In this document: piece by piece, positions 3,569-14,071 of the stretch
Numbering within the stretch: the first letter of the stretch is position 1
How the letters are laid out: every line of letters starts with the position of its first letter
Source of the DNA: Candidatus Latescibacterota bacterium
GTDB taxonomy: Bacteria > Latescibacterota > UBA2968 > GCA-2709665
DNA length: 64,000 bases
NCBI GenBank assembly: GCA_965248435.1
Contig: OZ252100.1
Coordinates: forward strand, 768,001 to 832,000
Direction of reading: 5' to 3'
The notes under the pieces: model-generated
Databases searched by the model: none
The model's input: only the letters and a program-made list of their open reading frames with translations
What the model was told of the DNA's origin: nothing
Position numbers and translations under genes: made by a program

Positions 3569-3665
3569 ACTGTTCTCCGAACGAGATAGGATGTGATTAT
3601 CGAGACGAAGCCCACAGCCGCGGTCTGTGGGCTGCCGTCCGATATACGAAATACGATGTTTTTAC

Positions 3666-3939
3666 GGCCGTGCACCCAGCTTCGATCCCTCATCCCGGCG
3701 GGCTCAAAAAGCGCCAGCTCCCACCAGGTCGCCCTGCGGCACACAGGCCGAACCGCCTACCGCTGCTACCTTCCGGTCCTGACGGGGTTTGGCGAAGGCC
3801 CATTGCGCAGGACCTGGCGATCGACACCGCTTTCTTTCTGAACCGCAACCCGGAATGCGAGACCTCAGGCGTGGGAATTCGACCCCGCTAAGCGGATTGC
3901 GGGTAACAGGGCACCGCTACCTCCCCATCTAGCACGGCC
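3666..3939 (-). ncRNA. ffs: Signal recognition particle RNA, large (Alu-containing) type
   Basis: Reverse strand begins GGCCGTGCTAGATGGGGAGGTAGCGGTGCCCTG, contains the helix-8 motif TCAGGACCGGAAGGTAGCAGC, and closes with GCACGGCC. Sits upstream of dnaX. Confidence 0.93.
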
Positions 3940-3947
3940 ATAAATCG

Positions 3948-3977
3948 CGTCGTTCGTCGCTCGTCTATCGTGGATCG
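3948..3977. repeat. Period-7 tandem array (CGTCGTT-like), left arm of an inverted pair
   Basis: cgtcgtt cgtcgct cgtctat cgtggat; inverted partner gcgaacgacgaacgacga at ~4369-4386. Confidence 0.7.
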
Positions 3978-4009
3978 CAACCGGATTCTCACTGGGGCTG
4001 GTTGCAACG

Positions 4010-4351
4010 TCAACTCCTGAGCCGTTTTATAAGATTGGTGAGCATCCGGCTCTCGTGATCGATGCTGTCTTCCAGATTAGAAAAACCCTCGTCGCTCACG
4101 AACTCTCTCCGACGTGCGATGATAAGCTGCGTCTCTAATTCCGAACAAGAACCGAGTGCTACGTAACAAAACTGGTATTCTTTGGAATACAGGCGTGCAA
4201 ACCTTCTGCTATGTTCGATGGAATCGAGATGGCCGTTCTCTGCATATGTGGTGCTAATCCGTATGTCTCTTCTTTGCGAAAGTCTTTCGCCGCGTCATAA
4301 ACAAGATCTACGATCTCGATCCCTTTTTTCTTTATAGCTCTTTGCTCTCAC
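4010..4351 (-). pseudogene. Four helix bundle protein (23S rRNA IVP-like), frameshifted
   Basis: Manual translation across two frameshifts: VRAKSYKE/KGIEIVDLVYDAAKDFRKEETYGLAPHMQRTAISIPSNIAEG/ARLYSKEYQFCYVALGSCSELETQL..LRS*. Has the SIPSNIAEG and GS.SELETQ signatures. Confidence 0.85.
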
Positions 4352-4432
4352 ATTGTGTATCCCCGCTTGCGAACGACGAACGACGATCCGGTCGTGTCCG
4401 TTAGGACACGACCCACGATCTGCGGGTTTTGA

Positions 4433-4509
4433 TGGTGGAGCAGATGGGGCTCGAACCCACGACCTCCAGAGTGCGATTCTGGCGCTCTCCCAAACTGAGC
4501 TACTGCCCC
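4433..4509 (-). tRNA. tRNA-Ala(CGC)
   Basis: GGGGCAGTAGCTCAG..CCAGA AT CGC AC TCTGG..GGTTCGAGCCC..CTCCACCA. Confidence 0.93.
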
Positions 4510-4518
4510 ACCCAAAAC

Positions 4519-4893
4519 TCACGCAGCCTCGATGATGATCCCCTCCCCCGATGAGACGGTTTTCAATACGGTGGTATCCCCAATCACGCGGCCGATCGGG
4601 TTGACCGGACTCGCCGGCCTGATCTCATCCCCCTCGCTGGCGGGCGTTTTTCCGAAAAAGATACAAAATGCCTTTCCGGGGGGCCAGTAGCCAAGGTCCC
4701 CCAGATCCACGGTTTCGACTGCATTTTCCGGATCCGCCGTCACAGGAATCGAAAAATAGATCTCATCACCCCAGGTATTGAAGCTGCCTTCTTCGATCGG
4801 AAGCTCGCTGGCAATCTGGCGCGCTGTCTCTGAATCATTCAGCTCGGCATCCAGGACGGTCGAACCGACGCGTATCTTTATCGGAAATGCCAA
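4519..4893 (-). CDS. Cyclophilin-like fold protein (TM1367/DUF369-like)
   Basis: WGDEIYF, GDLGYWPPGKAFCIFFGKTP, PASPVNPIG motifs. Confidence 0.8.
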   Translation of the reverse strand: MAFPIKIRVGSTVLDAELNDSETARQIASELPIEEGSFNTWGDEIYFSIPVTADPENAVETVDLGDLGYWPPGKAFCIFFGKTPASEGDEIRPASPVNPIGRVIGDTTVLKTVSSGEGIIIEAA

Positions 4894-6516: not shown

Positions 6517-6630
6517 GTATCTCGTATTTCGTAACTCGTATCTCGTATCTCGGGGCGCACACCATAGCCAGTCAGAACTCGCTACCCCTTCACCTCGCGA
6601 ATCGACGAGATACGTTTCACGAGATACGAC
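6517..6630. repeat. Inverted pair of period-7 arrays (GTATCTC)n...(GAGATAC)n with short spacer
   Basis: gtatctc gtatttc gtaactc gtatctc gtatctc at 6517-6551; gacgagatacgtttcacgagatacgac at 6604-6630. Confidence 0.85.
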
Positions 6631-8606: not shown

Positions 8607-8750
8607 TGGAGTGTTGGGGGAATTGAGTAATCAAGAAAAGAGTAGCTAGTGTTGGGGGAATGGGGTGTTGGAGCAATGGAGTGTTGGAAAATCAAGGCTA
8701 AGATACTCGTTTTTCCCAATCCTCCAACACTCCAATACTGCAATACTCCA
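8607..8750. repeat. Inverted pair of period-8 arrays (TGGAGTGT)n...(TCCAATAC)n
   Basis: tgggggaa tggggtgt tggagcaa tggagtgt versus tccaacac tccaatac tgcaatac tcca. Confidence 0.8.
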
Positions 8751-10440: not shown

Positions 10441-10473
10441 AATTGCGGATTTCGGAATGCGGATTGCGGATTG
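10441..10473. repeat. Period-7 array (GATTGCG)n; inverted partner at 10836-10865
   Basis: aattgcg gatttcg gaatgcg gattgcg gattg versus caatccc caatcca caatccg caatt. Confidence 0.85.
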
Positions 10474-10478
10474 ACTCT

Positions 10479-10835
10479 TCAATTCCTGTTTCTTTTCGCC
10501 GTTTTAATCGAAGACACCGTGATAGCAACGATCTGGCCGGCTTCATCCAATAGATCAACTATACGATTCCTGTCCATCAAATCGGATTCAATGAGGAGTT
10601 CCATCCAATACATGCTTTCATCTGCCTCTTCTTCTACGATACCCATCTTGGCAACGAATTCGGCCTGCGATCTCGCCCGACATGCAGCCCTGTAGTTGGC
10701 TCCCACAGACGTCCCACACCTCAGCAACTGCCTTCCCAAGACGTCGCTTGTGTTGCCTTTTGGCAACTCTTCGACGAGCTTTATAACCCGAAGTGCAAAG
10801 GCCCTAGTCCTTCCCTCCATTTCATCACGATTCAC
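10479..10835 (-). CDS. Four helix bundle protein (23S rRNA IVP / TIGR02436-like)
   Basis: RTRAFALRVI..QLLRCGTSVGANYRAACRARS.AEF..K..IVEEEADES.YW. Start GTG 10835; the ORF-track extension is translated repeat. Confidence 0.92.
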   Translation of the reverse strand: MNRDEMEGRTRAFALRVIKLVEELPKGNTSDVLGRQLLRCGTSVGANYRAACRARSQAEFVAKMGIVEEEADESMYWMELLIESDLMDRNRIVDLLDEAGQIVAITVSSIKTAKRNRN

Positions 10836-10868
10836 TCCGCAATCCCCAATCCACAATCCGCAATTGGA

Positions 10869-12459: not shown

Positions 12460-12703
12460 CGGCGAGCGCCGCCGTCCAAACGGGAGGGTTTTCGCCTTCC
12501 TGGGTTTTCTGACCCGCATCTCTGCTCTCAAAAAAGGGGGAATAAAGGGGAGGCACTTCGATTCGCTTGATGCAAAATAGACCGCCGGCGTTCTGTTGTC
12601 AAGCAATCTCAATTCGTCGTTCGTGGATCGGGAAAACCGTATCTCGTATCTAGTATCTCGTATTTCGGGGGCTGATGTTACCGCGAAAAAGTGGACAGGT
12701 TAG

Positions 12704-13860: not shown

Positions 13861-14071
13861 AGAAAGCCTCCTTGGATATGGGGAGACATTCTACCTATAC
13901 AAAAACCTTAACCGAGTGTCCACAAAATAGGTAACCCCAGGCTCGTCATCTTGCCAGTTCCTTAGTTTCACGGAATTCCCGTGCCATTCCCGTGATCGCC
14001 TTTCTGAACTACTCGCATATCCGACGAGATACGCTTCACGAGATACGAGATACGAGATACGATCTTCACCC

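Follow-up and report, generated by a model that had tools for sequence, protein, structure and literature searches.

A decaying four-helix-bundle cassette with heptamer arms in the tRNA-Ala–SRP RNA spacer of a Latescibacterota bacterium

The tRNA-Ala–SRP RNA locus and its broken gene

The minus strand of the window, by which we mean the whole 64,000-nt stretch of DNA analysed, carries in order a gene at 4519–4893 that we take to be cyclophilin-like, tRNA-Ala(CGC), a 488-nt spacer, the large SRP RNA and dnaX (Table 1). The tRNA lies 9 nt from the gene upstream of it. Both RNAs match their models end to end and are co-oriented, as the first-pass annotation had it. Between them, outside either mature RNA and interrupting neither, sits a cassette built from a four-helix-bundle gene and heptamer arms. 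A promoter and terminator scan of the locus gave one sigma-70-like site and no terminator-like site.

Table 1 Features of the tRNA-Ala–SRP RNA locus, in minus-strand order (window coordinates).
Feature	Position	Strand	Basis and remarks
tRNA-Ala(CGC)	4433–4509	−	ARAGORN; Rfam RF00005, 62.2 bits; host gene upstream of cassette
5′ heptamer arm, CGTGGAT/CGTCGTT family	4369–4417	−	Split by palindromic insert; 4384–4370 pairs with 3949–3963 in the fold model
25-nt palindromic mini-insert, SDR-like	4389–4413	−	10-bp perfect stem, 4-nt loop; within one heptamer unit
Four-helix-bundle (PF05635/TIGR02436) pseudogene	4010–4351	−	Profile matches; 14-, 1- and 3-nt deletions
Sigma-70-like site	3985–4013	−	Overlaps pseudogene stop codon; 1 found, 0.8 expected in shuffles
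3′ heptamer arm	3948–3977	−	4.3 degenerate units; ends 3 nt short of SRP closing stem
Large SRP RNA	3661–3944	−	Rfam RF01854 match 3668–3937, 177.6 bits; closing stem 3932–3944/3661–3673

Repeat relics flank the SRP RNA on both sides, those behind it (3577–3660) being CGTATTT heptamers with a small GC-rich hairpin. Elsewhere in the window, an intact TIGR02436 gene (10479–10856, minus strand, 85 bits) lies between inverted ATTGCGG arrays (10442–10864), and gene-less heptamer or octamer arrays, some of them inverted pairs, occupy gaps at 6517–6630, 8609–8750, 12617–12667 and 14024–14062.

The first-pass annotation had read a SIPSNIAEG-type gene with two frameshifts in the spacer, in a region missing from its list of open reading frames, and had proposed a search with the 23S_rRNA_IVP (TIGR02436) profile. 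No open reading frame of at least 40 aa corresponds to this gene, whereas both halves of it exceed the curated profile cut-offs, with 46.5 and 40.6 bits for PF05635 (cut-off 33.8) and 39.6 and 44.7 bits for TIGR02436 (cut-off 24). The gene runs from a GTG at 4351, with a ribosome-binding-like GGGGA motif ahead of it (4364–4360), to a TGA at 4012–4010, and it keeps the SIPSNIAEG motif. Alignment with five intact paralogues (62–64% nucleotide identity) places one frameshift at a 14-nt deletion near 4328 and a second at a 1-nt deletion in the T run 4199–4201; it also reveals a 3-nt in-frame deletion near 4174, with one codon lost, which the earlier reading had missed. A conserved Pro and a conserved Gln are changed as well. 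The intact reading frame of about 115–125 aa expected of PF05635/TIGR02436 proteins is absent at 4010–4351. Unable to make the four-helix-bundle protein, this copy is dead and has no function of its own.

Further alleles were sought in 23 listed metagenome runs, all of them assembled contigs, four of which were compared with the locus. A 499-nt contig of run X1 (record 7, depth 36) equals 3907–4405 with zero differences, and this run is probably the source sample of the DNA. The second contig, from another study (run X7, record 21), spans 3906–4430 and differs by 5 substituted letters and 28 letters in gaps (net +8), at a depth of only 2.8, where errors are possible. Its gap pattern can be explained as 18 letters present in excess (14+1+3) and 10 missing, among them one peculiar to this contig, at 4277. 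An entry of a protein collection (P0001; 79 aa, 97% identical, called from an internal Met, with one ENA member on two contigs) is open across the 4199 break and carries an extra Gln, and so lacks the 1-nt and 3-nt lesions; it may well be the same allele as the X7 contig. As far as these sequences indicate, there are at least two versions of the near-identical cassette, broken in different ways; this, together with the three deletions, bears out the earlier view that the gene is decaying.

It is very improbable, and already largely refuted, that the frameshifts stem from assembly errors in an intact gene or are bridged by recoding. Both frameshifts do touch homopolymer runs, and an allele open across two of the lesions exists, but one lesion measures 14 nt, the separately assembled contig of depth 36 has the same letters (if probably from the source sample), and the conserved Pro and Gln are changed too.

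No empty allele of this species was found in X1, X5, X7 and X8, X5 and X8 being covered in part (57% and 67% of the runs read); in these two, strains matching the flanks at about 98% are present, with the cassette uncovered. Joints from 3936/3944 to 4432 in X1, X7 and X8 look like empty sites but were rejected as other organisms, their inserted letters matching the spacers of other members of the class, namely G081, G136 and, but for one letter, G137. One further X7 joint, with 159 letters between, has a length that fits a species like G001, the sole congener. The four loci returned by a metagenome pattern scan for close alleles are unrelated, with tRNA-Ser upstream, and were set aside. Word sharing in six listed RNA runs was 0.06–0.11.

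Heptamer arms, gene family and nested palindrome

The inverted heptamers described by the first-pass annotation are real, although the stretch 3948–3977 is degenerate and not pure (CGTCGTT)n; its partner at 4370–4386 comprises 2.4 perfect units. The two match in inverted orientation over 16 nt at 94%, a match that one of 1500 randomly placed pairs with this geometry equalled. Taken with wider flanks, the arms did not stand out significantly in a duplex free-energy test: among 1000 random pairs, 8% were as stable. Past the palindromic insert, the 5′ arm continues to 4417.

Two kinds of mobile element were considered. A tRNA-targeted integrative element was rejected, as none of the 12 direct-repeat families at 3600–4600 repeats the tRNA 3′ end and there is no room for an integrase. 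As for fixed terminal inverted repeats and a target duplication, the marks of MITEs and insertion sequences, the arms consist of degenerate units in tandem; neither a transposase nor, as judged without an empty allele of the species, a duplication at the ends could be seen at the cassette.

PF05635 has 14 matches at 11 loci of this genome, eight intact and three broken, and by eye all 11 adjoin heptamer or octamer arrays. A nearest-homologue search yielded 80 GTDB loci out of at least 602 candidates, 78 of them with both flanks; 44 of these 78 have inverted heptamer arms by the criteria applied. The nearest intact homologues among the matches listed, L164 and L165, carry CGTGGAT/CGTGATT arms of the same repeat family. 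The arms belong to the gene. A special link to stable RNAs did not hold: ten other such loci exist in the genome, none of the 78 homologous loci has a tRNA within 400 nt, and none has the SRP loop motif nearby. Some homologues also carry Pfam PF22296, which is presumably a bAvd-like domain.

Within the genome, the nearest paralogues carry GGTACCG arms and form a clade of their own with the pseudogene outside, in a tree built without the long branch L170; a single clade of all of them is not rejected (p-AU 0.098). At G000:C1:3022871-3913762, GGTACCG-armed four-helix-bundle genes have expanded locally to seven loci. Five of these are intact, one is truncated and one is interrupted by ~1.2 kb of inserted sequence; the five intact genes have Ala, Val or Phe in place of the conserved Glu that precedes ‘TQ’.

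Period-7 arrays number 135 in the genome, against 1–25 for periods 5, 6 and 8–11. The CGTCGTT family accounts for 74 arrays of at least 3 units (1 in a shuffle), of which at least 4 have an inverted partner within 1.2 kb by a pattern that missed the pair at the pseudogene locus itself. CGTCGTT and CGAGATA arrays are nearly all solo; of the CAGACCG arrays, a gene-less hairpin family, 33 stand in short inverted pairs, mostly 23–80 nt apart. Between co-oriented genes, by crude gene calls, 31 CGTCGTT arrays are sense and 14 antisense. A solo CGTGGAT arm lies directly behind tRNA-Thr(TGT) at G000:C1:4624031-4624147, and this stretch recurs 25.8 kb away (4649874–4649908), as at the ends of an integrated element.

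The palindrome nested in the 5′ arm appears to have a history of its own. Its 22-nt core is present 23 times in this genome, with CGTCGTT-family units on both sides of every copy; the stem is conserved and the loop variable. Of 41 genomes compared, one has the exact pattern, and the 40 relatives lack it. We propose that the palindrome invaded the 5′ arm family separately. The closest copy of arm plus palindrome (G000:C1:2338409-2338515, minus strand) is 93% identical over 61 nt before running into an ATTGCGG array; it lies in the gap between rnc, the RNase III gene (G000:C1:2337569-2338231), which it directly precedes, and a gene that from its sequence is presumably fabF-like. This position may be chance among 23 copies, or may bear on rnc self-regulation.

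In Nostoc, small dispersed repeats (SDRs) are reportedly palindromes of about 25 nt, dispersed in many copies and always within heptamer arrays. By that definition the insert is SDR-like, being palindromic, 20–30 nt long, dispersed and seated in heptamer arrays. It differs from the Nostoc SDRs in sequence and phylum, and in being nested in the arm of a four-helix-bundle cassette. The Nostoc elements were described by Elhai et al. 2008, as cited in PMC2884548. Xanthomonas and Nostoc (PMC4692102) and Beggiatoaceae (PMC4679880) likewise have many intergenic 7-base arrays, often in inverted pairs and fast-changing, according to the main texts of these papers; those texts nowhere contain ‘four helix’, ‘S23’ or ‘intervening’, and leave the arrays unlinked to the four-helix-bundle gene or to stable-RNA spacers.

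The same spacer across the phylum

The orthologous spacer was collected from 38 of 40 relatives, those with a listed SRP match, and from a second set of 141 phylum genomes, of which 127 had an SRP match. The latter gave 85 further loci, with 7 partial or weak matches left out, and tRNA-Ala lies upstream in 67 of these 85, for 105 spacers from 30 genera in all. The pairing of tRNA-Ala(CGC) with a large SRP RNA right behind it is thus a conserved arrangement, found in 105 phylum genomes with a spacer of 5–225 nt (median 51).

None of the 105 spacers holds a four-helix-bundle gene, all being too short for one. The homologue profile had no match at the 85 further loci (a search made without a positive control), and no PF05635 match is listed at other tRNA-Ala–SRP sites. 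The comparison with relatives, which the first-pass annotation had recommended, therefore agrees with its reading of the cassette as an insertion. It had further held that gene-less relatives with both arms would speak against that reading; the relatives lack the cassette’s arms, but many carry paired arms made of other heptamers.

Period 7 is significant in 29 of the 81 spacers of at least 30 nt, covering 9 of 20 genera, against 0–2 spacers for periods 5, 6, 8, 9 and 10. The repeated unit varies by lineage: GTCAGTG in genus g2, TAAGAGG in g6, TGAGGAT-like in g8, GAAGATA in g9, GTTTCGG-like in g11, and TCAGCAG with ACGAGTC in g27. The g2 unit is the arm unit of a four-helix-bundle gene of its own member G006, while the four-helix-bundle genes seen in g6 have arms other than the spacer unit. 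We considered whether the spacer is an insertion hot spot and dropped the idea, since period 7 is also present behind the SRP RNA (12 of 91 genomes, 7 of 24 genera).

Hairpins are frequent in the longer spacers. A hairpin fold with a z score of −2 or lower was found in 42 of 63 spacers of at least 50 nt, against 2 of 54 length-matched control stretches behind the SRP RNA, and 13 of 14 genera agree (Wilcoxon p 0.013), although the control is partly coding and kin among the relatives are not independent. We count against this evidence that tRNA trailers often hold terminator-like hairpins anyway. In addition, the spacers of three relatives (G013, G014 and G015, or L022, L016 and L015) contain a 166-nt palindromic, MITE-like insert with short terminal inverted repeats, added to the usual hairpin of the genus. 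The sole congener, G001, has another palindrome in its tRNA-Ala–SRP spacer.

These counts bear on an unlikely but serious alternative, in which the cassette came to rest in this spacer as it might have in any other gap between genes of a repeat-rich genome, its arms persisting only through the youth of the insertion and slippage that renews tandem units, and their pairing doing nothing for tRNA or SRP maturation. The 135 period-7 arrays and 11 four-helix-bundle loci of the genome agree with such gap filling, as do the heptamer relics behind the SRP RNA, the solo arm behind tRNA-Thr and the spacers of G047 and G068, which at 165–225 nt form no hairpin. Against it, long spacers are hairpins far oftener than the control stretch whatever the element, be it heptamer arms, the 166-nt insert of G013–G015 or the palindrome of G001.

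Predicted precursor fold and proposed fate of the cassette

The very short spacers of the relatives, together with the lack of a terminator-like site at the locus, suggest that tRNA-Ala and SRP RNA are co-transcribed; the shortest spacers, from 5 nt, leave no room for a promoter. The predicted fold of the joint precursor resolves into four separate domains: the tRNA (pairing probability 0.99), the palindrome hairpin (0.98), the arm stem (mean 0.77) and the SRP closing stem (0.96). The arm stem adjoins the SRP stem in this predicted fold. Scrambling the 5′ arm (eight scrambles) left the SRP and tRNA stems at a predicted 0.96 and 0.95; eight scrambles of the 3′ arm gave 0.86 for each, with minima of 0.46 and 0.48.

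The small predicted effect of these scrambles is in line with the gap-filling alternative, and it also touches the earlier claim that the insertion was tolerated because its arms pair. Pairing is predicted by the model, yet the scrambles barely disturb the folds, most CGTCGTT arrays are solo, and the arm behind tRNA-Thr has no partner either. We regard tolerance through pairing, as far as the fold model goes, as no more than plausible.

On balance we consider it probable that an armed cassette inserted into the spacer, has been decaying there, and is looped out of the precursor and discarded with the spacer. In this scheme a cassette of about 470 nt (about 490 nt before its deletions) would have entered a normally short tRNA-Ala(CGC)–SRP spacer in the lineage of this species, and its gene, now dead, would be losing bases differently in different strains. 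The arms would pair in the joint precursor and the dead gene hang out as a side loop, so that the tRNA 3′ end and the SRP closing stem could fold as usual despite the cassette. Ordinary spacer processing, by RNase III at the SRP stem and perhaps at the arm stem, would then discard the cassette. The genome encodes RNase III (rnc), and in Bacillus subtilis RNase III cuts the scRNA out of a precursor stem; with the separate domains of the fold and the cleavage of the Coxiella intervening sequence (IVS) described below, this makes looping out and discarding the most likely fate. Over time such cassettes may collapse to gene-less heptamer hairpins, as in the spacers of other genera, whose hairpins could descend from cassettes. 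The reversed arm order in G114 and G117, relative to the cassette arms at the pseudogene locus, counts against this account.

The two RNAs might instead be uncoupled, with upstream transcription ending or being cut behind the tRNA, and the SRP RNA starting at a promoter of its own where the dead gene ends, the 3′ arm serving as leader. The sigma-70-like site does point at the SRP RNA (4013–3985), and the palindrome forms a stable predicted hairpin 20 nt behind the tRNA. We nevertheless judge this arrangement as a whole improbable, as the site is at chance level and no terminator-like site was found.

The favoured account, insertion followed by decay and removal with the spacer, invites comparison with the S23p-type IVSs in the 23S rRNA of Coxiella burnetii and Leptospira, as described in PMC4990558, where the S23p-type protein forms a pentameric ring. 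According to that paper, S23p IVSs resemble the cassette in several ways. They too are about 430–490 nt long, carry a decaying four-helix-bundle ORF that is looped out by a stem at their ends and preceded by tandem heptamers, and lie inside a stable-RNA precursor (as the cassette would if co-transcribed). The 16-nt inverted repeat of the cassette likewise supplies complementary termini that form a predicted stem around the ORF. The two also differ: the S23p IVS sits within mature 23S rRNA, breaking into helix 45, and its excision is obligatory, whereas the cassette lies in a spacer that would be discarded anyway; RNase III cleavage was shown for the IVS and is a presumption for the cassette; and the stem has 28 bp in the IVS against a predicted 15–20 bp here. 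The first-pass label ‘IVS-like’ is thus apt for the architecture of gene, heptamers and terminal stem, but an IVS proper is ruled out, since no mature RNA is interrupted.

The Coxiella paper (PMC4990558) was the only one found that links a four-helix-bundle gene to heptamers. In a literature search that most subscription papers lay outside, no paper was found on such cassettes outside 23S rRNA, nor any on a tRNA–SRP co-transcript.

This copy, then, is a genuine but dead cassette that looks caught in the course of decay, and its setting in the tRNA-Ala–SRP spacer is both unusual and amenable to testing. The locus bears on how S23p-type IVSs and bacterial heptamer arrays arose. Across 106 genomes, a single orthologous site is found in several conditions: as a bare spacer, with hairpins built from at least six different heptamers, with palindromic inserts of other kinds, and once with a cassette that bears a gene, in what appear to be two differently broken alleles. 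The precursor RNA is small (~860 nt) and suits in vitro study of how paired arms might make an insertion harmless.

More tentatively, it is possible, if doubtful, that the spacer acts as a filter at the RNA level, repeatedly invaded by self-pairing cassettes of different heptamer families, each excised as an IVS would be and then collapsing to a gene-less hairpin; the pseudogene locus would be the one intermediate that still has its gene. If this reading is true, the 23S rRNA IVS would be a special case of a more general cassette, excised by RNase III and able to reside in any co-transcript.
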